From contig CM000151.3 in NCBI GenBank assembly GCA_000004695.1, positions 3,904,001-3,968,000 of the forward strand: 64,000 bases of DNA, given 5' to 3'. The translations under genes were made by a program, and so were the position numbers. The first letter of the stretch is position 1. Every line of letters starts with the position of its first letter. This stretch comes from Dictyostelium discoideum (lineage: Eukaryota). The notes under the pieces were generated by a model. That model was not told the DNA's origin. It searched no databases and saw only the letters and a list, made by a program, of their open reading frames with translations. This document shows positions 6,962 to 52,243 of the stretch, piece after piece.

Positions 6962-7401
6962 TAGATTTTTTTGATCAAATTATATTATATATTAATATAT
7001 ATTTATTTTATTATATGGATCAAAATAAATTAATTTAGATTACCACTAATTTTATTCAAAATCTCTAAATCTATGTGGGTTTTATATTCATTTAAATAAA
7101 AGTAAACACACAAAAATAAAAATAAAAATATGGGGGAAATTTAAAATAATAATTATATTTTATTTATTTTTTTATTTTATAATATATTTATTATATTTAT
7201 TTAAATTTGTCTTTTTTTACTTTTTTTAAAAAAAAATTGGATTTGAGGGTGGTTTTATATAAATAAAAAAGATCATTATTATTATTACTTTTTTTTATTT
7301 ATTTATCTATAAATTTTATTTTATTTTATTTTATTTTAATTTAATTTGTTTTTGACCCAAACCCCCAATTATTTTTTGTAGTTTTGTGACTGATGTTGGT
7401 G

Positions 7402-10055
7402 TTATGTTGATGGTGTTAGTGGTTTAACTGAAAATAAATTTGGAATTCCACCAATAAATCCGCTCTTTTCTGATGGTTGTTGGTTTGTTGAGGTTGTTGT
7501 CGATCTAGTGGAAATTCCACTAAGGAATCCACTTGGTTTTGGTGTTTCATTAGCATTTGTTGTAGATATTGCTGGTGATGTTGTAGAAGGTTTTTTAGTT
7601 ACTGTAGGTGGTAAAGTTGGTTTTATATTTGAAAATTCACCGATGTATCCACTTTTTTCAGTGGTTTGCGTAATACCTCCAATCAATCCACCAAATGGAG
7701 CATTTCCAGTTGTTGAGGTTGATTGGGTATTTGAGGTTGGTATAAAACCTATTAAACCTGGCAATAGATTGGATGGCGGAGGAGTAGAATGCGTTTGAGT
7801 TGGGGTTGGTGTTTGAGTTTGAGTTTGAGTTGGTGTTTGAGTTTGAGTTGGTGTTGGTGTTTGAGTTTGAGTTGGAGTTTGTGTTTGAGTTTGTATTGGT
7901 TTTGGAGTTTGAGTTTGTGTTGGAGTTTGTGTTTGGGTTTGAGTTGGTGTTGGTGTTTTAGTTTGAGTTGGTTTTGGAGTTTGGGTTTGTGTTGGAGTTT
8001 GTGTTTGAGTTTGAGTTGGTGTTGATGTTTGAGTTTGAGTTGGTGTTTGTGTTTGAGTTTGTGTTTGTGTTTGTGTTTGTGTTGGTGTTTGTGTTGGTGT
8101 TTGTGTTTGAGTTTGTGTTTGTGTTGGTTTTGGAGTTTGTGTTTGTGTTGGAGTTTGTGTTTGTGTTGAATTTTGTGTTTGTGTTTGTGTTTGTGTTTGT
8201 GTTTGTGTTTGTGTTGGTGTTGGTGTTGGTGTGTGGGTTTGTGTTGGTGTTGGAGTTGGAGTTTGTGTTGGAGTTGGAGTTTGTGTTGGAGTCGGAGTTT
8301 GGGTTGGTGTTGGTGTTGGAGTTTGAGTTGTTGGTGTTTGTGTTGGTGTTTGCGTTGGAGTTTGTGTTGGTGTTGGTGTTTGAGTTGATGTTTGTGTTGG
8401 TGTCGAGGTTGGTGTATTGATTCCACCTAAAAAGCCTCCAAAGAAACCAGATGCTTTTGTTGGTGTTGGTGTTGGTGTTGTTGATATTGATGTTGGTGTT
8501 GTTGATATTGATGTTGGTGTTGAGGATGGTGCATTGATACCACCAAAAATGCCTCATAAGAAACCAGATGCTTTTGTTGGTGTTGGTGTTGGTGTTTGAG
8601 TTTGAGTTGGTGTTGGTGTTAGTGTTGGTGTTATTGTTGGGGTTTGAGTTGGGGTTGGTGTTAGTGTTGGTGTTGGTGTTAGGGTTTGAGTTTGTGTTGG
8701 TGTTGGTGCTATTGTTATTGTTGGGGTTTGAGTTTGTCTTTGAGTTTGTGTAGGTGTTGGTGTTTGAGTTGGTGTTGGTGTTGGTGTTTGTGTTTGGGTT
8801 GGTGTTGGTGTATTGTAACCTCCAAAATAGCCTCATAAGAAACCAGATGCTTTAGTTGGAGTGGGTGTTGGTGTTTGTGATTGGGTGGCTGTAGTTGTAG
8901 TTGTAGGTGTTGGTGTTGGTGTAGGTGTATTGTAGCCACCGAAATAGCCTCCTAAAAAACCAGATTCTTTAGTTGGAGTGGGTGTTGGTGTTTGTGATTG
9001 AGTGGGTGTAGTTGTAGGTGTTGGTGTAGGTAGTGGTTGGGTTGGTGAAGGTGTTTGAATAGGTTGTGTTGTACCAGTTGTTGAACCACCAAATAAACCA
9101 CCCAAGAAACTAGATACTGGTTTTTGAGTTGGATTTGGGGTTGGAGTTGAGGTTGGGGTTGGAGTTGATGAAAGTGTTTGTGCGGGTGTTGGTGTTGATC
9201 CACCACCACCTATAAATCCACCTAAAAAACCACTTGATGGTTTCGATGTTGGAGTTGGAGTTAAAGATGGTGTTACACCACCATTTGTACTTCCACCACT
9301 TATGAAACCACCAATGAAACCAGTACCACCACCATTTGGTTGGGTAGGTACAGGGGTTTGAGTTTTAAAACCACCACTACCTCCACCTAATAAACCACCT
9401 AACAAACCTGAAGATCCGCCACCTAATAAAGCACCACCAATTAAATGTGGGATATTATCAACTCCAATTAAACCAGAAGTTGATGTAACACGTGGACATA
9501 ATAATTTTGCTTCAATGATTGCACCAAATAAACCACTAAATAAATTTGATAGACCAAATATTGATTTTTGTACTCTTTCATCCATATTATCTTGATCCAT
9601 AATAATTATACCTTTATTAACTGGAATCCCATCTTTATTAAACAATTCAGGATAACAAAAGTTTCTATATTTTGAACATAATGAAGTAATCTTTACATCA
9701 ATATTATCAACTAAATAGTTTAAATCATAATTTTGATCTGTTAAATAATTTTTAATTCTTGATATAAAATATTTTTGTTTTTCATCTTCATTTAATTTAT
9801 TAAATAATTTTAAAGATACATCATTTTTATCATTCTAAAAATGGAAAATTAAAAATAAAAAAAAATAAAAATTAGAAAAATAATATTAAAAAAAATCTAT
9901 AAGATCCTTATAATAATTACTCTTAAATCAACTATAAATTTATTTCTGTTTATTTCATCAACTTCACTTTCTTCTTGATAGATTTCATTTGCATTAGAAT
10001 TTCCCATAAAAAATATAAAAATAAAAAGTATTACAATTATTTTTAATATTTTCAT
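7402..10055 (-). CDS. Secreted Thr/Pro-rich mucin-like repeat protein (paralogue C of a 3-gene cluster) with two in-frame TGA codons; possible pseudogene or strain polymorphism; 2 exons, about 855 codons
   Basis: Exon 1 is 9921..10055: signal peptide [22 protein letters not shown]...VDLR, donor GTAATT. The intron is 9835..9920. Exon 2 is 7402..9834 in a single frame (coordinate mod 3 = 1). ORFs 8833..9645 and 7402..7764 are parts of that frame, and the 1-kb stretch between them has no Met and so is absent from the track. The frame encodes NDKNDV...CSKYRNFC...[12 protein letters not shown], then about 7 xSGF[LF]GG[YFL][FI]GG motifs separated by (PT)n spacers, then 630 nt of (GTTTGA/GTTGGT)n hexamer coding TQTQTPTPT.... 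TGA codons at 8833-8835 and 8554-8556 both lie in the identical context GGTTTCTTATGAGGC (SGFL*G), where intact units have TTAGGAGGC. Confidence 0.6.
7790..8420. repeat. Imperfect hexanucleotide array (GTTTGA/GTTGGT/GTTTGT)n, about 630 bp, coding Thr/Gln/Pro repeats of the mucin-like gene; all three reverse frames are open
   Basis: Visible periodicity gtttgagtttgagttggtgtt.... This explains track ORFs 7958..8836 (TNTN...), 7752..8426 (HKHQ...) and the plus-strand ORFs 7789..8025, 7968..8420 and 8173..8388 as repeat artefacts. Confidence 0.9.
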
Positions 10056-18419: not shown

Positions 18420-19030
18420 TTAATCATCATCAATTACAATTGGATCAGTTGCACTATTATTTCTTGAATTATTATTATTATTAATATTATTAATATTATT
18501 AATATTAGTGTTATTGTTGTCACTATTTTTCTTATTCTTTTTTGCATTCTTTAAAAATTCATTTCTATAGTAAACAGAGCTATGAAGTATATTTTTACGT
18601 TTATTTGAATGAACTTTACCACATTCACATTCATCATCATCATCTTCATCCTCATCATCATCCTCCTCATCCTCACCTGCATTAATTCCTGCTCTTGAAT
18701 AAAAGCTGTATATCTCAGAGTCTCCAGAATCCTCTTCTTCCTCTTCTTCTTCATCTTCTTCCTCCCCCTCCTCTTCTTCAATAGGACTACTTCGAAATTC
18801 ATCAGAGTCTCCAGAATCCTCTTCTTCCTCTTCCTCTTCATCATAAGGAACAGATTCACTACCGAGATTTGTTGTAGTTGTTGTAGTTGTTGATGCTGCT
18901 GCTAATTGATCTAATGTAGTTGCTGATTGATCTAATGTCGTTGCTGATTGATCCAATGTCGTTAAAGTTGAGGGTGTCATAGTGGTTGCAACACTTGAAG
19001 TTGATACAGTTTGAGTTGGAATATCATTAC

Positions 19031-19121
<91 letters not shown>

Positions 19122-21024
19122 ATCATCAGAGTCAAGTAAATCTACAATCTCTATATTATTAGCAGTAGTGGTAGTTTTATCACCATCACCACCACCATCA
19201 GCATCATCCTTACCATCATCATCACTAAAATTTTCAGCAGATTCATTTTTATATTCCCAATGACCATCAGGAAAAATGGTAATAATTTCACAAGTTGAAG
19301 GTGCTTGTGATAAAAGTTTTTGAAAGAATGGATCTATTAATAATAAATTTGGAGGAGCAACAGCATGACAAATTGGACAATTCCAAAGCTGTTGTTGATT
19401 TGAATACTCTGTAAAACTACATAAATCAAAACATTGATTATGAGTGCACTTTTTAGATTTAGCAGGATATTCAATCCTTTTAAAACTTAAAGGACAACGA
19501 ACTGTTAAATCATAGGTTAACTCTTCCAAATCATCTTCATTTTTCTTTTGTCTCTTATCAGCCGATTGAGATTCCTCCATTTCCGACTTCATTTTAATTT
19601 CCTCAACCACCTGTTGCAGAGTTTGGTTCTTTAATAATTGTACAACCATGATACCACTTGTTCTATTCTGAATTTGTAAATTGACTCTATTATCAGATCT
19701 TTTCACCAAGTGGGTGATGTCAATTGGTTTTTGAATTACACATGGATTTGAAAATGATTTAGTTCTAATCTTTTTAAATTGCTCATTATTAATTGATTTA
19801 CCATTGACTGATAAATATATATCTGAACCGTAATGAATATCACTACCACTTTGTTTATTGTATAACCTAATTTGAATTGAGTAATCGTCTTTTAGAGGTG
19901 GTGGTGGTAATGATGGGTTTAATAATTTCTGTTGTGCTGCTTCAATGATTTTCCAAGTCTCTAAATCTAAACTAAATGAAACGGTTACAGTGGAAACGAA
20001 TGATGTTATCACCAATTTATCAAGTTCTTGAAAGAATGGTGATTGTTTTTCCTCAAAACTACTATCATTAAGTTGTAGTTTCTTTTGAACTGAAGGATTA
20101 TTATAATCAGAGCTTGATTTATTTTGCATTGTAAATATAAATCTAGTTATATTTTGCATTGTATCTTTATATTGTCTTGGTGGTTCTTGAACATTATCTG
20201 TAAAATTATTAATTCCACCATTTAATTTTTGAACTTGTAATTGAAAATTATTAGATGCTTGATTATGATGTTCTGAATTAATACTACCATTATAATTATA
20301 ATTATTATTATTATAATTATTATTATAATTATTATAATTATTATAATTATTATTATTATAATTATTATTGTTGTTATTATAATTGAAGTTATTATTACTA
20401 TTACTATTGTTATTACTACTATTATAGTTACTATTATTATTAGTGGTGGTGGTAGTAGTAGTACTATTATTATTGTTAGTAGAAATATTTGGATATATAG
20501 ATTCTAATTGTCTTTGAGCATTATGTATTCGCTCAATTTCTTGTAGTCTCTGTTGTAAATAAATTGCATTTGGTTTTAGAGCATATTGTGGTGTTGGGGG
20601 TGCTATTCTATTATTATTATGGTTATGATTATGATGAGAAGATGATGATGAAGATGAGGAGGATGAGGAGGATGAAGATGAGGAGGATGGACCAAAAGCT
20701 ATACTCTCTAATGAGCTTAATAATTGAGGTTTATTCCCTTGTAATCTTGTATTTGGTCTATAATGTCTAACAATCTTTAATATTGCTTTAATTTCATCAA
20801 CTTTTAATTTCTTTAAATCAAATATTTTACTATTTTTTTAATTTGTTTATGTTTGTTAATATATATTAATTTTTATAGAGTCTCCAAAATAATTAAATAA
20901 ATAAATAAATAAATAAATCGAAAACTTACGATACAAAATAATTATTAAAAGTATTTTGGTCCCTAGAAAATACGCCTTCAACAATTTCTTTTTGTTCAAC
21001 CGTTGAAAAGCGATGGCTTACCAT
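18420..21024 (-). CDS. PIAS-type SUMO E3 ligase (SAP + PINIT-like + SP-RING/MIZ zinc finger); 2 exons, about 834 aa
   Basis: Exon 1 is 20930..21024: MVSHRFSTVEQKEIVEGVFSRDQNTFNNYFV, phase 2, donor GTAAGT. The intron is 20830..20929. Exon 2 is 18420..20829: SKIFDLKKLKVDEIKAILKIV (SAP-like)...poly-Ser/Asn...the SP-RING CPLSFKRIEYPAKSKKCTHNQCFDLCSFTEYSNQQQLWNCPICH...N27 tract coded by (ATT)n 19037..19116...acidic tail. Confidence 0.8.
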
Positions 21025-21968: not shown

Positions 21969-22234
21969 TTACCAATGTTCTCTTGTTAAACAATTATCAT
22001 TATTTTTTAAAGGTTCATTAAATAATTTTGCATTTGGATCATATCCATTTTTACTCTTTGCATCTGGTAAAATACTTTCACAAACTATTGATAAACAATC
22101 AAACATTTGTTCATTAAAAGTATCAGCTCCTTCCCATGGTTTCGATACATGATTCATATGAATAATCCATGCATCTGGTAAAACTACAAACTATATATTT
22201 TTTTAATAATAATTAAAAAATAAAAAATAAAAAA

Positions 22235-23054: not shown

Positions 23055-23744
23055 TGATGTATCAAGTTTCTCTAAAGTTGAATGTAAATAATCATACATA
23101 CCCAATGGTGAAATGAAATCAACATCTAATAATAAACACCATTCGGTTCTAGCATTTCTTAATGCTAAATTTCTAAGATTATTAACTGGATATCTGGTTT
23201 TATTTGCAAATAGAAAATGTAAATCGACAAACTCTGTAACTGCAAAACTATTTCTAACCAATTTAAATACTTCATCAATATCCTTAAAACTCGTTATATA
23301 AACTGCTGCTGAAATTGGTGCTCTCCATTTATCTGCCATCATTGCTATTCTATCAAATCTATCAACTGTAAATTGTGTTATAATTGATATATCATATTTT
23401 TTTAACTGTAATTTATAATAAACAAAATATTAGATACTAGATATTAGAAATATAAAGTTTGAATTTATAATTTATAATATACATATACATACATCACCAT
23501 TTGCTCTATAGGCAAATGTTTCAGTTTGAAATTTTGTATATAATGATTCTGTAAATGAAGAAGTTTTTGAAACTGGATGATTATTGTTATTATTGTTTGA
23601 TTTCTTTTCACCAAATGGTCCAAATACATATAAAAACAAAAATATTAATATAAATACAATTAATGTTTGATACGGTTTCTTTTTTATTCTTTCTGTTAAT
23701 CTAAATGTATTCCTTCTGGGATTGTTATTATAAAAATTTGACAT
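21969..23744 (-). CDS. Type II membrane glycosyltransferase, GT49 family (LARGE C-terminal domain / B4GAT1-like); 3 exons, 516 aa
   Basis: Exon 1 is 23493..23744: MSNFYNNNPRRNTFRLTERIKKKPYQTLIVFILIFLFLYVF (signal anchor)..., donor GTATGT. Exon 2 is 22329..23405: LKKYDISIITQFTVDRFDRIAMMADKWRAPISAAVY...NLLRNLALRNARTEWCLLLDVDFISP (DxD)...N32...CPKCHGPTNYSRWYLSSEPYLVQYKWIYEPFLLYNRS...YGFDKNSHTFGMAAAGFD, donor GTAAGT. The intron 22191..22328 contains (AAT)n. Exon 3 is 21969..22190: FVVLPDAWIIHMNHVSKPW...*. HAPTNFAKW and FIVLPNAYMIHMPH of LARGE domain 2 are mirrored. Confidence 0.75.
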
Positions 23745-23864
23745 TTTTCAAATAGAATATCTTGTTCTTCTTTTTATTTATTTTTTTTTTTTTTAAAAAA
23801 AAAAAAAGTTATTATTTAAATTACTGAACCACACAACCAACCACAAAACAACAAATGGTTTTCT

Positions 23865-23896
<32 letters not shown>

Positions 23897-24092
23897 AAGG
23901 GTTTGTGTTAATTTTATTTTTTTACTTTTTTTACTTTTTTTGTTTTTTTATTTTTTATTTTTTATTTTTTTTTAAGATTATGAGGGTTAGTTGTTTGTTA
24001 TATGAAACAATTATAATTTATGAATATAAGCGAAAAAAAAAAAAAAAAATGAAAATAAAAAAAAAAATCTAATTTTTTTTTTTTTCAAGCCT

Positions 24093-24124
<32 letters not shown>

Positions 24125-24280
24125 CAGTTAAAACGACAAAAATCTAATTTTATTTTTTTTTTTTTTTAATTTTTTTTCATTTTTTTTTTTTTGAAATTAA
24201 AATTGGATTAAATAGGAAATGTGAAATTAGTTTAAGAGTTTTTAACTTTAATACGATTTTTTATTTTTTTATTTTTTTTT

Positions 24281-24471
24281 GATTAATATAAAAGTGAAAG
24301 GGAAACTGGAATAATTTAAAATGTTTTTTTTTTTTTTTTTTTTTGGTTTAAACAATATGTGAATGTTAGGCTGAAATAATTTAAACTTTTATTTTATTTT
24401 GTTTTATTTTATTTATTTTTGTTGTTTAAACAACATAACTAAAAATTGAAACTTGCAATAATTTAAATTCT

Positions 24472-24528
<57 letters not shown>

Positions 24529-24600
24529 GTTTAAACAACATTAACTAAAAGTGAATGTGAAGCTGGAATAATTTGTTTAGTTTTAAAGATTTCACAAGAT
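24281..24600. repeat. Four tandem, progressively degenerate copies (75-110 bp period) of the trappc9 3' terminus (last about 60 nt of CDS + start of 3' UTR), separated by T-runs (poly(A) on the gene's sense strand)
   Basis: Units: 24528-24590 (real CDS end, ...LVNVV*), 24421-24472, 24345-24390 and 24281-24322. All share GGTTTAAACAA(C/T)AT...AAAAGTGAA...CTGGAATAATTT (CTGGAATAATTT at 24561, 24305; CTGAAATAATTT at 24371; TTGCAATAATTT at 24453). T55 (24473-24527) and T17 runs lie between units. Confidence 0.8.
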
Positions 24601-27600
24601 ATTATAAATTTATAAGATTCTCTTTCAAAGAATATGACATCCAAAGAATGATTAAAAGTAGCACCGACTGGTAATTCTTGAATTGGTGTTGTTAATGAAC
24701 CAATATATCCTAATTTATTTGATACATCAACAATGTTACCATTATTCTTGTTATTACCATTATTGTTATTATTAGTTTGATCAATTATTGGTAAAATATG
24801 TAAAACTAAACCATTAATTGGAGTATTTGTTAAATTTGTAACTAAAACTTCAATTGTTTCAAAACCACCTTGTTCAATTGTTTTAACCAATTGTTTATTA
24901 TTTTTGAATTGAATTAAAACTTGATCCTTATTCAATTTATGAATTAATTTTGAGGTTAATACGATATTATCCAATAGGATTGAACCATTTGTATTATCGG
25001 ATGAATTCCATAACAATTTAATTTTACTTGTTAATAAATCCTTATAGTATTGAATTAAACATTTGACATACTCTTCATATTCAGTTAACTTCTTCTTTGG
25101 TTTAATATATTGTCCTTTAGCTTGTCTTAATGGTGGTAATTGATCAGGTAATGATTCTCTTTTCATTGGTACAATAATTGTAATTATACCATTTGGTGAT
25201 AAAATAAATTTAGATGATAAATTATTATTAATTTCCTTATTATTATCAACAATATTTGGTATACCTAATTCTAATTCTGAAGAGATTGTAAAAGTATGAG
25301 TTGAAGTACAATTTTTAATATCAAATAATAATAAACAATAATCATTATAAATATTTTCACAATCTTTTTCAATTAAATCTTGATCTTTTTCAACTTTAAA
25401 TAAACCATTATTTGATGTTGATCTATCGACTAAATAAGGTGATAATGATTTAATAATTTTTGAACTTGCATAAACTATATCAAAATTTATAACTTGTGGT
25501 CCATGTGTAATTGATAATGGTAATGGAATTGTAATTTTACGTTGATACTTTGTTGCTGTTGTCGTGGTGGTTGCTGTTAATGTTGATTGTGTATTACCTG
25601 TTACTGTTAATGTTTGAGTATTGGTATTTGTAGTGGTAGTGGTATTATTAAATTCTTCTTCTTCTTCTTCATTTTCACAATTTGAATAATAATCAATTAT
25701 GAATTGATTACCAATTAAGAATGGTTTTGAAAATGATTTAATTGGTAATTTAAAAGTTTCGCCAGGTAATAATGGTAATGAAGATTTGATGATATTTGAA
25801 TCCCATTGGAATGAAATAGTTTCATCATCAGAATCTGTGAAATATTGATTATTATCAGCCAATGTCTTCTTTTTCAATGCTTTATCAAATTCATTCAATG
25901 AGACTGAAATTGAATCGATTTGAGTTGTACCAATATTTTGGAATTCTAAATTGAAACTAAATGATTCACCAGCTAACAAATTCAACACCTTACCTAGAGT
26001 TGGTACATCTGCCTTTAGTATTGGTAATTTGGGTGTAGCTTTGATTTTATTAACAATTGGTAGTTCATTATTATTATTATTATCTCTTGAAAATGATGAT
26101 GTATTATTACTAGCGGTTGTTGTTGAATCAAATTCTAAAATATCAACTTTATAGGCATCACCAATTCTAACCAATTCATTATATTGACTAATTGAAATTG
26201 AATTACCATATGGATCAACTGGATGTTCTGATAATAAATTATAAGCACGTACAAATACACCTTTAATAATCAATGGACCAGATTCTAATGGTTTACCAGA
26301 GATAACAATATCCATTGAATCAGTTAATGATAGGATTTTAAATGATAATGGATATGATTCAAATGGTACACCTGCAGTACTTAATGTTAATGATTGAATG
26401 AAAATATCAAAACTGAATGGATTTGATAAGGTTACTACAACACTACACTCTTCACCTTGAGCCCAAACTACTTTTTTTCTATTTGAATTTGAATCACCAC
26501 CACTACCACCACCACCAATACCACCACCGCCAATACCACTACCATTACTAAAACCACCACCATAGGGTGAATAAATGAAAAAGTTATTTGAATTCTTTTC
26601 TCTTTGAGCAAATAATGATTGTTGTGAAGGTCTAACAATTGGTTCCAATTGATTTGGTAATTGAATTGGTGAAACCTTTACAATGAATGGTAAACCAAGT
26701 AAATTCATATGAACATTGGTATTGATACTTAATGATAATGCTTTACTATGATGTAGTAAATCCAATTGAAATTCCACTTGTTTCTGTTGAGCTATTTTTT
26801 TATATTGAGTTCTTAATAAATGGATTATATATTTACAAATATTCAATGAATCCATTAAATTGGTACTAACTGATATTAAATTATAAATTAAATATCTTTG
26901 AATAACTGACCAACCAAATTTTGGTTTCCTGTAGGATAATTCTGGTATATTATTTGTAAATCTTGATGATGTCGATGAAGACGATGATGATCTATTCGAA
27001 CTATTAGATTGAACCTGTTGTTGAATAGATTGATTGAATTGATTATATTGTGCTTGAAATCCAACATTAGTAGGTGATGAATTTTTACTATTATTACCAT
27101 TACTACCGCCACCGCCACCACCACCACCACCATTATTATTATTATTTCTACCAGAGGTAACAGAATTTGACTTTTTCATTTGATTCAATGTGAATGATAA
27201 ATGAGATTTTTTAGAACCACCTTCATCCAAGAATCTTGATGGTGAATTTGAGAAAAGATCCTCCAATTGATAATATTTCGATGCTATTATAAGTAAATGA
27301 TTAATCTTTTCCCAATTCTCTGGTCTTGTATTATAAAGGAATGCAGCTTCACGTAAATAAAATGCAAACTTTCTTCTAAATCCCATACTATAATATAATA
27401 ATGCAATTGAACATGATAATGTAATTCTATCAGTAAATGATAAATCCATACCAAAATCATAAGCATTGGTCAATAGCTCGGATGCTTCAATTCTTCTATC
27501 CATTGAAATATGATAATTTGCAAACTTTAACATAACATCAACTTCAAATTGTGGTACTTTTCTCTTATTATAACTAATTATTGCTTCAGATGCTAATTCT

Positions 27601-29047
27601 CTAATCTTTAAATCATCTGATTGAATTTGTAAATCTAAAATATTCATTGTACCATTCATACCATTAACTCCATTATTATTATTATTATTATTATTATTTA
27701 AATTATTATTTGTACTATTTGTATTATTTGAATTATTATTATTATTATTATTATTATTACTACTGCTATTTGTATTATTTGTATTATAATTACTACCACC
27801 ACTTGGTGTATTTACTATACCACTATTACTATTACCATAACTACCACTATTACTATTACTATTACTACCAGTTATTGAATTTGGACTATTAATTGGTCTA
27901 ACGGTTGAAGATTGAGCTTGAGTATTAAATTCTTGGTTTCTCTTTAAGAGAACTGCAGAGATATAACCTTCACAAGAACCAGCTAACCATTCCCAATCAT
28001 TATTACTTCTACAAGCATCTATTGAAAGATCATAATATTTAATAGCATCCAATGGTGAACCTGCCAATAAACAAAAATCACCTCTACATTTATTTAAACG
28101 ACCAAACTTTCTCTTTTTTGCTCTACCAATTTCATCCCAAAGTTTAATTGAATCCAATGGTGTAGTTATCAATGAATTATTATTACTATTTGATATAACA
28201 CTACTACCCAATACACCTGAATTCATAGCACCACCAATTGTTGAATTTCCAATTAAACTATTATTATTATTATTATTACCACCAATACTATTACTATTAA
28301 TAATTCCGCTACTATTATTATTAATATTATTATACTGATTTGATAATAATGTTGAAACTGTGCCATCATGTTCTAATGATAAATAAACCATTTTTTCAAA
28401 ATATTTTAAAATCATATGAGAGAAATCGATGAGTAATGTAGTTAGATAGAATATTAAATGCTTTCTATCACTATTATTTGGTATCATAATTAAATTTGCA
28501 CCTAAACCTAAATCTGGTTGATCATCCATTGGATCGAATGCACAACATAATGAGCTTACACATGATGGATATTGTGCAACTGCAATCTCGAATAATCTTT
28601 TCGTCTCTTGTAAATCTTTTGATTTCTTACAATCTACAACACCAATAACTCCAAATACTTTCTTATATGTTTGAAGATCCTCATACTCTGATCTTTGAAA
28701 TGAACCAATATCAACAAAATTTAATATCATACTACCATCAACCCATGATATTTTTTCAAATGGTGCTTTAAAAAAAAATAAAAAAAATAAAAAAAATAAA
28801 ATAATAATAAAAACAATGTTAATATATATTGTATTTGTATTTGTATGTGATTTATTTATATATATTTATATATTTATATTTACTTACATAATTCATTTTG
28901 ACTTCTTGTAATACTACTTAATTCAATTATATTGATTGTTTTAATTAAACTTGTATATTCTTTATATTTTTCTGGTGAGATATCACCAATTGGAAGAATT
29001 AGAATTTTAATTGATCTATTCTCTGTGAATGTTAAATTCATTTCCAT
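24531..29047 (-). CDS. trappc9: TRAPP complex subunit 9 (TRAPPC9/NIBP/Trs120) homologue; 2 exons, about 1464 aa
   Basis: Exon 1 is 28888..29047: MEMNLTFTENRSIKILILPIGDISPEKYKEYTSLIKT...SQNEL, phase 1, donor GTAAGT. The intron is 28766..28887. Exon 2 is 24531..28765 (the long ORF). Matches to human TRAPPC9: YKKVFGVIGVVDCKKSKDLQETKRLFE~[27 protein letters not shown] and GRLNKCRGDFCLLAGSPLDAIKYYDLSIDACRSNNDWEWLAGSCEG~[46 protein letters not shown]. Many Asn/Ser/Gly low-complexity inserts. Confidence 0.85.
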
Positions 29048-29600: not shown

Positions 29601-31017
29601 ATGGATGTACAAATGTATATTAAAGATGAAGATCAAGAAATTATTTGTTTAAATAATGATATTAGTTTAATAGAAATTGATAATGATGATGACCAAGATG
29701 ATGAAATATTTATATCACCATTTGTTAAAGGTCAATCAATAATTCATAAAATATTACCAATTCATATAATGCAAATAATATTCTATTATACACTTACATT
29801 GGGTGAATTCAATTCAAATGAAGAAACTGTATTGAAAATATGGGATTCAAAAAACAATGATCGTTACTCATTAGAAGCTGTTTGTGTAACTTGGTGTTCA
29901 ATCATTAAAGCATCATGTAGGTCTTTAATTTTATCATTAAATAATTTAGAAGCAAATACATTCAGAATCACTCACTACACTTATTTAAAGAAATTAGAAA
30001 TTATAAATAATATAAATAATGATAGTGACTATAGTGATTTTGATGATAGTGATGATGATGATAGTGATGGTGATGACAATAGGAAAGATTATAGTAATGA
30101 TGATATTTATTATGACTATTTCGATCAAAAAAAGAATATGACATATAGACGTAGGAAAAGAGTGCTCAATGATAACTCTGACAAGATTGGCAAATGCTTG
30201 GCGACTATTATTAATTTATCATTGCCAAATTTGAGTACATTAAATTTATCAATGACAAATTTGAAGGAGAGACATGTGAAAGTAATCCAATCATCACTAT
30301 CATGTAATAGGAATATTAGAAAATTAGCATTTGATAGTTGTCCTATCGGTGACCAGGGTGTTGTATACCTATCAGATGTGTTGGAATCAAATCAATGCAT
30401 CCGTCAATTAGATCTACAGTCATGTGGCTCGGTTAACGGGTTGGAGTATTTGGGGAGGGCGTTGTCGAATAACCAGACGTTGGAGAAACTGATATGGTCC
30501 TACAACCAATCCAATTACACCAGTGTCATGTGTTTAAGCAATGGTTTGAGAAACCCCCACTCACAAATGAAATCGTTGATAATGAAAGGATGCGATATCG
30601 AGGGTTGGGGCGCACTGAGTTTGGCAGACACCTTGGCAATCAATAAATCATTGAAAGAGTTGGATCTGGGTTCAAACCAATTTGGTGATGCTGGTGCAAT
30701 CACATTGGCTTCCAAATTGAATTCACATCCATCTCTATCAATTTTAGATTTATCAAGTAATTTAATTTCAACTGAAGGTTTTGATAAAATCTTATTCTCA
30801 CTTGAATCAAATACAACCCTAACAAATTTAAATCTTTCAAGAAATCAATTAGATCTTTCAATACCATTAAACTACTTGACAAGTTCTTTAGCATTCAATA
30901 AAACTTTAACCTCTTTAAATTTATCTGAATGTAATTTACAAAATTCTCATTTTATTCAAATTTCAATTGCATTACAATCAAATAAAAAATTAAAAAAATT
31001 AAATTTATCAAGTAAGT

Positions 31018-31069
<52 letters not shown>

Positions 31070-31265
31070 ATAATATAAAAAACTAATTAATTACTTATTT
31101 TTGAAAAAAAAAAAAAAAAGAAAATAATATATCAGATATAAAACCATTTTTTACAATTATTCAATCAAATAAAACTTTAAAATCAATTTATCTTTCAAGT
31201 AGGTATTTTTTTAAAAATATTAAAAAAAAAAAAAAAAAAAAAAAAATTAATTATTAATTGTATAT

Positions 31266-42313: not shown

Positions 42314-42842
42314 TAAAAAAAGAATTTTTTGTGGTTTACTAATTTTTTATCCTTGGAATTAATTTTATTTTTTTTATTTTTTTTTTTTTATTTTTTTATT
42401 TTTTTATTTTTTTATTTTTTTTTATAGTAAAAACTTTTTTATTATTTTTTTTATTTTTTTTATTTTTTTTTTGTAAAACCACAAGATTTACAAAAATTAA
42501 ATTAAATAAAATAAAAATAAATTAAAAAAAAAAGTTTTTACTAAAAAAAAGAATTTTTTGTGGTTTACTAATTTTTTATATTCGGTATTATTTTTTTTAT
42601 TTTTTTTTTTATTTTTCTATTTTTTATTTTATTTTATTTTATTTTTATTTTATAACCTGGGTATTAAATAAATTATTTTAAAATAAAATTTAAATTTATA
42701 TAACTTTTTTTTTTTTTTTTTTTTTTTTATTATTAGAATTTTAATATGAAGTTGGAGTATTAATATGGTTATTATAACTATCATTTTCTAAATTTAAAGA
42801 TTTATTAAATAAATTATTTTAAAATAAGATTTAAATTTAGTA
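42314..42842. repeat. Cluster of local tandem duplications downstream of the MFS gene: a 40-bp direct repeat (x2, 227 bp apart) and 1.5 extra degenerate copies of the MFS 3' end (C-terminal codons + 3' UTR)
   Basis: X repeats: 42314-42352 and 42541-42580 (CTAAAAAAAGAATTTTTTGTGGTTTACTAATTTTTTAT). Y copies: 42729-42842 (TATTATTAGAATTTTAATATGAAGTTGGAGTATTAATATGGTT...TTTTCTAAATTTAAAGATTTATTAAATAAATTATTTTAAAATAAGATTTAAATTTAG), which parallels the real gene end at 42868-43030 (TATTATTAGAATTTGAGGAGGATGAAGTTGGAGTATTAATATTGTT...TTTTCTAAATTTAATGATTTATTA), and a partial copy at 42655-42707. The rc of the copy reads ..NKSLNLENDSYNNHINTPTSY*, against the real ..NKSLNLENNND..NINTPTSSSSNSNNKII*. T25 lies between copies. 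Confidence 0.8.
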
Positions 42843-42870
42843 ATTTTTTTTTTTGTTTCTAATAAATATT

Positions 42871-44811
<1,941 letters not shown>

Positions 44812-50163: not shown

Positions 50164-50677
50164 CAATTATTTCAAGTCATCGGGAAAAATAAAAAAAAAA
50201 AATAAAAAAAAAAAAAATAAAAAAAAAAAAAAAATGAAAAGGTTTATTTACGAAAATAAATGCCGAAACTGGCGAAACGTTTTTTATAATTATTTTTTAA
50301 AATTTTTTTTTTATTAGTATCGCATAAAATAAAATTAAAAAAAAAAAAAAAAAAAATTAATAATAATATCAATTTTTAACATTTATCATACTCTCTCTCT
50401 CTGTTACTTCATATATTATAAAAAAAGAATATTTTTTTTTTTTGTAAAATTTTTAAACTCAATTTAAATCACACTTCATCTCATTTTACCCCTTTACATT
50501 TTTACACTTTTTTCAAAAAAATTTTTTTTTTTATTTTTAATTAAAAAAAAAAAAATAAAAATAAAAATAAAAACAAAAATAAAAAACAAAAAATAAAAAT
50601 AATAATAATAATTTAAAATAAAGTAAACAAATAAATAATAAATAAAATAAAATAAATATAATAAAAAAAAAAAAAAA

Positions 50678-52243
50678 ATGGAAAATAATAATAATAATTT
50701 TATTGAAGAAGAAGAAGAATTAAGTGAACCAAAAGAAAAATGTGGAGTTTTTGCAATTTATGCACCAGAATTAGATGTTAGTAGAATTGCATTTTTTGGA
50801 TTAGTAGCATTACAACATAGAGGACAAGAATCATGTGGTATAGCAACCTATGATGAATTTCAAAGTGTACATGTAGAGACAGGTATGGGATTGGTGAATC
50901 AAGTTTTCAATGAAACTAATTTGAAGCCATTGAAGGGTAAGATGGCAATTGGACATACACGTTATTCAACAGCAGGAAAGAGTACATTGGTCAATGCACA
51001 ACCAGTGATTGTGCAAACATTGCATGGTCAAATTGGTATTGTACAAAATGGTAACCTCACCACTGCAAAGAGTTTAAGAAAAGAGTTGATGCAAAAGGGT
51101 GTTGGTTTCTTTATAGATAGTGATGTCGAAGTAATTACACAATTGTTATCCAACAATCCAGAGGGTTGCGATCCACATAAACCAAATTGGGAGAATAGAA
51201 TCGCCCATTTCATGAGCAAAGCAGAGGCTGCCTACGCATTGTGTTTGATGACACCCAACGGTATCTACGGTGTGCGTGACTCGTTGGGAATGCGTCCATT
51301 ATGCTTGGGCTCGTTGGAGGTGCCATGCAAGGACGACCCAACCAAGACCATCACTCGTTACGTGTTGACCTCAGAGTCTTGTGCCATCGGCACCATTGGC
51401 GCAAAGTTTATACGTGACGTTCGTCCAGGTGAAATCGTACACATCAACGAGAATGGTATCACCTCCTTCATTGGCCGTTCGCCATCGGATAATCCAGCAT
51501 TATGTGTTTTCGAATATGTTTATTTCTCACGTCCAGATTCATCAATGGAGGGCCAACTAATCCATATCGTCCGTCAACGTATGGGCGAGACATTGGCTCG
51601 TGAGTCACCACCACCACAAACCTGCTCCAACAATGACACCATTGTTATAGGTGTCCCCGACTCCTCATTACCCGCTGCCATTGGGTATGCCAAACAATCG
51701 GGTATCCCATTCACAGAGGGTTTAACAAAGAATCGTTACATTCATCGTACTTTTATTCAACCATCCGATCATTTACGTCAACAAGGTATAAAATTGAAAT
51801 TCAATCCACTCACAGAGAATATTCAAGGTAAGAAAGTGATACTCGTAGATGACAGTATCGTTAGAGCAAACACTATCAAAGCTTTAATTAAATTGATTAG
51901 AGGAGCTGGTGCCACTGAAATTCATGTCAGAATCTCCTCTCCACCAGTTTTACATCCATGTCACATGGGTATCGATATGGCAACATACGACCAACTCATT
52001 GGTCACAATAGAACAGTCGAAGAAATTCGTGAATATATAGGCGCTGAAAGTTTACAATATCTAACCCTAGAAGGTTTAATGAAATCTGTCAATATTGGTA
52101 TTAAACCACAAGCTGAAACTAATTCAACTCCATGTTTTTCAACTTCATCCCCAACTACAACCAAAATTAAAATTAATGAAAATAATCAAAAACATTGTGT
52201 TGCTTGTTTCACTGGTGATTATCCTTGCAGTTTAGATTTTTAA
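50678..52243 (+). CDS. purF: Amidophosphoribosyltransferase (glutamine PRPP amidotransferase, [4Fe-4S] type); single exon, 521 aa
   Basis: Propeptide [21 protein letters not shown], then the catalytic [10 protein letters not shown]... (N-terminal nucleophile Cys after processing); [16 protein letters not shown]; the PRTase motif [14 protein letters not shown]; and C-terminal Fe-S Cys ligands CHMGIDM...[15 protein letters not shown]. Confidence 0.95.

Follow-up and report, generated by a model that had tools for sequence, protein, structure and literature searches.

Genomically encoded oligo(A), in the form of transcribed dT/dA tracts, was reportedly described near the 3′-ends of Dictyostelium mRNAs by Jacobson, Firtel and Lodish in 1974. 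An A55 run directly behind the trappc9 stop codon and the A-runs behind half of the open reading frames (ORFs) in the 64-kb stretch of DNA analyzed here, which we call the window, fit that description, which deals with the tracts themselves and not with gene termini duplicated along with them; a literature search yielded no specific description of duplicated gene termini in Dictyostelium. The array of such termini that we report downstream of trappc9 shares with minisatellite-type slippage arrays (PMC7466956, PMC3188802) the head-to-tail arrangement of its units (here 65 to 110 nt), the presence of A/T homopolymers at indel hot spots, and decay mainly through small deletions. It departs from typical minisatellites in that its unit straddles a stop codon and leaves fossil C-terminal coding ends, and in that its copies, far from being near-identical, are old and have diverged. 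Simple sequence repeats account for 11% of the D. discoideum genome and have been ascribed to slippage (PMC3188802), and in mutation-accumulation lines of this species, which gave a base-substitution rate of 2.47e-11 and an indel rate 2x that, deletions were 4.5x as frequent as insertions and indels clustered in homopolymeric A:T runs (PMC7466956). In Plasmodium falciparum, the breakpoints of tandem amplifications have long monomeric A/T tracks (PMC6393310), and these amplifications resemble the trappc9 array in their extreme AT genome, their head-to-tail arrangement, and the A/T tract at the unit boundary. The Plasmodium amplicons (PMC6393310) span kilobases, include whole genes, were drug-selected, and have A/T tracks at both breakpoints, whereas the trappc9 unit consists of ~50 nt plus a tract and has its 5′ breakpoint in ordinary A-rich coding sequence. 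A further resemblance is to the 5′-truncated retrocopies made by non-LTR machinery, in which a 3′-terminal gene fragment is likewise followed by an A-run; unlike retrocopies, the trappc9 copies are tandem, adjoin their parent, have one 5′ boundary, carry an A-run that the parent DNA itself contains, and have no dispersed counterpart in the window.

The ~20% G+C content of the window and its long homopolymer runs fit Dictyostelium. On its minus strand, trappc9 (TRAPPC9/Trs120) is divided between exon 1 (28888..29047; 160 nt), which begins with the ATG at 29047, and exon 2 (24531..28765), which includes the stop codon and was identified from its ORF and its match to Pfam PF08626. The intervening intron (28887..28766; GTAAGT...AAAG) has predicted splice sites, as does exon 1, and joining the two exons gives a CDS of 4395 nt with an intact frame and one stop. 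The 1399-aa trappc9 ORF (24531..28730, minus strand) matches PF08626 with E = 6.3e-85, and because the match reaches position 1228 of the 1229 in the profile, the annotated C-terminus is the normal end of the family. The protein ends in ..TKQIIPASHSLLVNVV, its final residues being ..IIPASHSLLVNVV, and the TAA stop is at 24533..24531. On the sense strand, ACC is the only unique 3′ UTR sequence between this stop and the A55 run (24527..24473), behind which three more copies of the terminus follow.

The real terminus and these copies form four contiguous head-to-tail units in one orientation that occupy 24574..24250 of the minus strand, with no unrelated DNA between them. All are built on one plan, in which the last 44 nt of the CDS with its TAA, plus ACC, is followed by an A-tract and then by a T-rich spacer of 4 to 8 nt. 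Unit 0 (U0; 24574..24465; 110 nt) contains the real terminus C0 (24574..24528; 47 nt; AAATTATTCCAG...GTTGTTTAAACC), the A55 run, and the spacer CAGAATTT (24472..24465). In unit 1 (U1; 24464..24383; 82 nt), the pseudo-terminus C1 (24464..24424), delimited by pairwise alignment to C0, is followed by an interrupted A-rich tract (24423..24387), the 37-mer AACAAAAATAAATAAAATAAAACAAAATAAAATAAAA with a longest pure run of 5, and by the spacer GTTT. Unit 2 (U2; 24382..24318; 65 nt) comprises C2 (24382..24345), an A21 run (24344..24324), and the spacer CATTTT, and unit 3 (U3; 24317..24250; 68 nt) comprises C3 (24317..24281), a tract of A9-T-A7-T-A6 (24280..24257), and the spacer TCGTATT. The flank beyond U3 starts with AAAGTTAAAAAC. 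The units differ in length mostly through their A-tracts and accord with the minisatellite range of roughly 10 to 100 bp, and the array has the head-to-tail order, single orientation, and similarity beyond composition that characterize a tandem repeat.

Alignment thus recovers, as C1, C2, and C3, the three same-orientation copies of the terminus that a preliminary description of this DNA had placed downstream of the trappc9 stop, and translation bears out its reading of a pseudo-C-terminus LQVSIFSYVV*, which is encoded by C1 and stands against ..IIPASHSLLVNVV* at the real end. The shared segment is shorter than the ~60 nt of CDS and ~30 nt of UTR given there, amounting to 47 nt that consist of 44 nt of CDS with TAA plus ACC. 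The A-runs had been listed as A55, A17, and A17; the first is present at 24473-24527, whereas the tracts behind the copies are no A17 runs but the interrupted 37-mer of U1, the A21 of U2, and the A9-T-A7-T-A6 of U3. As a separate observation, the end of C1 is a perfect 16-nt palindrome (TGTTGTTTAAACAACA, 24421-24436) at a place where the real terminus has TGTTGTTTAAACCAAA, and this may reflect quasi-palindrome "correction" through intrastrand template switching.

The similarity among the units stands well above the background of the window. When the 48-nt real terminus was scanned against all 8524 70-nt tiles on both strands of the whole 64 kb, C1, C2, and C3 were the top three non-self matches, with scores of 45, 44, and 35-37, and the remainder of the window gave a best score of 27, a 99th percentile of 22, and a median of 14. 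Among 1000 dinucleotide-preserving shuffles of the 198 nt downstream, none (0/1000) reached 35; the best match never exceeded 31, the second 22, and the third 18. An nhmmer profile built from the four units recovered exactly those four (E = 1.6e-9 to 2.2e-6), the next hit having E = 1.2. A candidate for a fourth relic unit at 24243..24206 was rejected, being collinear but with pairwise scores of 17-20 that are at noise level, and it was missed by the nhmmer profile. The four units are real, as are their boundaries and the junction that they share.

Copy identities were taken from pairwise local alignment to C0 and refer to aligned positions only. C1 is identical to C0 at 38 of 40 positions, with four small indel events; C2 at 34 of 38, with one 9-nt deletion; and C3 at 31 of 35, with the last ~11 nt missing. 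The pseudo-copies are therefore 89-95% identical to the real terminus, but indels have reduced them from 47 nt to lengths of 41, 38, and 37 nt, and the tracts behind them are interrupted or altered in length. Divergence does not increase with distance from the gene, as had been supposed: the most distal copy, C3, has the best-kept core (repeat family D5; 26 of 29 positions identical to C0), C1 has the best 3′ end, and C2 lacks its middle part. Each of the copies is nearer to C0 than to the others, which is expected under any model because protein selection holds C0 near the ancestral state. This pattern of decay matches the mutation spectrum measured in D. discoideum (PMC7466956). If the published substitution rate applies, the 5-11% substitutions would put the age of the array, very roughly, on the order of 10^9 generations, and the array is therefore predicted to be common to strains and perhaps to sister species.

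The internal junctions, CAGAATTT/AAATTATT, GTTT/AAATTATT, and CATTTT/AAATTATT (slashes mark unit boundaries), all share TTT/AAATTATT, and TCGTATT/AAAGTTA, where the array ends distally, has the same form. Counting both strands (128 kb), there are 12 occurrences of the junction word TTTAAATTATT; the array contains 3 of them on a single strand within a span of ~150 nt, a clustering for which a rough Poisson estimate gives ~0.01 expected; the gene itself lacks this word and has AACAAATTATT instead. Another word, TTGTTTAAAC, is present nowhere in the window outside the array. The 5′ boundary of the unit (AAAACTAAAC/AAATTATT) is situated in A-rich coding sequence and not in a homopolymer; it is on its 3′ side that the unit has the A-tract. 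Amplification of one unit leaves just such a constant junction, whose TTT derives from the 3′-end of the unit, i.e., from sequence that was originally behind the A-run.

We consider it probable that the array originated at the DNA level, by a stop-spanning tandem duplication that was followed by amplification and deletion-biased decay. The founding duplication would have had one breakpoint in the last codons of trappc9, at AAATTATT (24574), and the other just behind the genomic A-run that follows the stop, probably at AAAGTTA, and the likely mechanism would be replication slippage, or fork stalling with template switching, at the A/T tract. The unit copied in this way would consist of 44 nt of CDS with TAA, ACC, A(n), and the T-rich spacer. 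Since frame and stop codon are both retained in the first copy, such a duplication leaves the protein as it was and does no harm. The array would then have grown to four units by more slippage, or by unequal exchange, among its units and A-tracts, and the three untranslated units would have decayed mainly through small deletions and through interruption or length change of their A-tracts. The heptamer AAAGTTA at the distal edge (24243..24249, minus strand) may be the microhomology partner of AAATTAT, with which the unit starts, and is as such a candidate for the original breakpoint, although 6-7 nt of AT-rich sequence is not significant alone. The position of the 5′ breakpoint outside any homopolymer tells against this history. 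Slippage between A-runs had already been suggested for this locus, and it (or unequal exchange) fits the head-to-tail units, the A-tract in each of them, the shared junctions, and the terminal microhomology. With such an origin no function need be assumed for the array, which would be a small, degenerate, minisatellite-like product of ordinary slippage in an AT-rich, repeat-prone genome and would call for no new mechanism.

The composition of the region, which is rich in homopolymer runs at ~80-85% A+T and in which many of the families returned by a generic repeat finder (D1-D4) are merely T-runs, invites the explanation that the array is a chance likeness of low-complexity AT-rich sequence or an artefact of assembly. 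We find this scarcely credible. Chance is excluded by the window-wide scan and the shuffles, which also dispose of the low-complexity objection anticipated in the preliminary description, and the shared cores hold the G/C-bearing words CCAG, TTCAC, and GTTGTTTAAACC; the 5-11% substitutions and the indels that separate the copies cannot come from mis-assembled identical reads. Another alternative is an origin through RNA, in which 3′ fragments of polyadenylated trappc9 mRNA would have been reverse-transcribed or used as repair templates and inserted beside the gene. The copies all end alike (..TTTAAAC(C)) with an A-rich tract behind each, and they contain only the extreme 3′-end of the gene, as 5′-truncated retrocopies do. 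However, the DNA of the parent itself encodes A55 at this very position, and ORFs here are often followed by A-runs: of 24 long ORF ends, 12 have a sense-strand run of at least 10 (up to A55, A40, A29, A28, and A25) no more than 200 nt downstream. Because the parent locus encodes A55, DNA copying reproduces both the 3′-end and the poly(A) pattern, and because A55 is encoded and half of the ORF ends have A-runs, the A-run behind each copy is no evidence of an RNA intermediate. A retrocopy is recognized by a poly(A) tail that its parent locus lacks and that sits at the mRNA cleavage site, by a new location between target-site duplications, and by its independent point of 5′ truncation. Here, A55 is found at the equivalent place in the parent, the copies directly adjoin the parent gene with none elsewhere in the window, and all three start at TTT/AAATTATT; any target-site duplications are inseparable from the periodicity of the array. 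Independent retro-insertions would differ in 5′ boundary and junction word, both of which are common to the three copies, and the copies are strictly tandem, co-oriented, and adjacent to their parent. The tRNA genes are the usual target of the Dictyostelium TRE non-LTR elements, and none was found in the 64-kb window. A second stop-spanning duplication in the window, at the MFS gene discussed below, has no A-run at its junction, and further local duplications, described below (18715-18842, 42324-42572, and the A(n)-TTAG(A/G) repeats at 24061-24192), are unconnected with gene ends. With A55 encoded in the parent and no A-run at the MFS junction, template switching on polyadenylated transcript ends, which had been proposed as an alternative to slippage, is not required by the data, and we regard the RNA-mediated origin as very unlikely. 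If just one founding event had been RNA-templated and DNA-level amplification had done the rest, the outcome would, by sequence alone, be indistinguishable from an origin at the DNA level.

Maintenance of the array by selection, whether as tandem poly(A) signals or terminators or as poly(dA:dT) or motif repeats acting on a downstream promoter, also seems improbable to us. The intergenic region that contains the array is shared by trappc9 and a downstream gene on the same strand, which is glycosyltransferase-like and has its ATG at 23744, and within the unit TTTAAATTATT and TTGTTTAAAC have been preserved better than the middle. Moreover, the first AATAAA hexamers after the stop sit in the A-tracts of the array: none lies between the trappc9 stop and 24417, the first five overlap at 24417-24388 in the U1 tract, and two more are found at 24273-24260 in the U3 tract, the hexamers of the array being confined to these two decayed tracts. 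Yet AATAAA is frequent across the whole A-rich spacer (16 in 790 nt), and mutation biased towards AT is expected to spare pure A/T words. The units have also suffered frame-destroying indels, C2 having lost its middle and C3 its end, and no Rfam family matched 23600-24800 at E ≤ 1. If the array arose by DNA-level duplication and decay, the T interruptions of the U1 and U3 A-tracts would have created AATAAA as a by-product, and these hexamers may serve as trappc9 poly(A) signals supplied by A-tract decay. They are also the one feature in favour of the alternative polyadenylation sites that the preliminary description had suggested. Because no AATAAA lies between the stop and 24417, the 3′ UTR of trappc9 mRNA probably includes A55 and C1.

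The preliminary description had reported the same phenomenon at an MFS transporter gene on the minus strand (stop at 42871; Pfam MFS_1, E = 3.7e-36). A stop-spanning tandem duplication is indeed present there, and it is the unit that differs, consisting of the CDS end and ~95 nt of 3′ flank. The first MFS unit (43000..42797, minus strand) contains the end of the CDS, in which there is a long (AAT)n tract, together with this flank, and the second (42796..42655, minus strand) has ~79% identity to it, a much shorter AAT tract, and A24 where the gene has ATTATATAA. The duplication covers roughly 140-200 nt. Downstream of the same gene we also noticed a second direct repeat, in which ~35 nt (ATAAAAAATTAGTAAACCACAAAAAATTCTTTTTTT) occur twice on the minus strand (42315-42345 and 42545-42575) within spacer that is otherwise rich in A, with a period of 229 nt (42324-42572).

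In a survey of the long ORF ends in the window, the last 60 nt of each ORF and the next 6 nt were aligned to 400 nt of downstream sequence, and, as a control, to upstream and reverse-complement sequence. Apart from the repetitive coding block at 7.4-9.6 kb and the poly-lysine/A-run case at 31070, trappc9 and the MFS gene are the only ones of the ~24 to stand out. Stop-spanning duplications at 2 of ~24 gene ends, against no start-spanning duplication seen in the window, could hint at a bias specific to 3′-ends, but greater tolerance and easier detection of CDS explain the difference equally well, and a 64-kb window is too small a sample for a duplication rate. Two other candidates were discarded: a start-codon-spanning duplication suggested by blastn at 50185-50701 proved on reading to be merely A-rich low complexity, and a repeat at 22059-22183 belongs to the final exon of the downstream gene and not to a 3′ flank.

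Several other features of the window came to light alongside these duplications. In the trappc9 intergenic region, at 24057-24192, three sense-strand A-tracts with a period of ~75 nt are each followed by TTAG(A/G), the tracts being A30-TTAGGC, A13-TTAGAT, and A15-T-A4-TTAGAT; this looks like another small A-run-associated duplication, unrelated to any CDS. An ORF on the minus strand (18420-20159) contains an 87-nt (29-codon) in-frame tandem duplication at 18715-18842 that, at 97.6% identity, is much younger than the trappc9 units. Same-strand T-runs are present behind other ORF ends in the window, and a leucine-rich-repeat ORF on the plus strand (29601-31070) ends in 15 consecutive lysines before its stop, its frame running through an A-rich run, so that in this case, too, though differently, an A-tract shapes the 3′-end of a gene. 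A block of 35-41% G+C at ~7400-9650 is dense in 6-, 18-, and 24-nt repeats (GTTTGAGTTGGTGTT..., plus strand) and carries overlapping long ORFs on the minus strand, one of them a 292-aa ORF with no Pfam match; it is probably highly repetitive coding sequence.

The trappc9 array is a clean local example of a slippage-prone, AT-rich genome remodelling the 3′-ends of its genes. A duplication that straddles the stop codon comes at no cost and leaves fossil C-termini, and its decay can create or move poly(A) signals. In practical terms, pseudo-termini and encoded A-runs can mislead the annotation of gene ends and the design of primers, and internal priming at A55 or A21 can mislead oligo(dT)-primed cDNA synthesis and 3′-end sequencing. 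The array would matter more only if there were a genome-wide excess of such duplications at stop codons or if its origin were RNA-templated. We can also envisage, though we think it rather unlikely, that the poly(A) tracts behind stops are recurrent breakpoints, through fork stalling, template switching, or transcript-templated repair, and systematically seed stop-spanning minisatellites in D. discoideum. If so, many genes of this organism would trail fossil C-termini, and their decaying A-tracts would yield AAUAAA and reshape 3′ UTRs.
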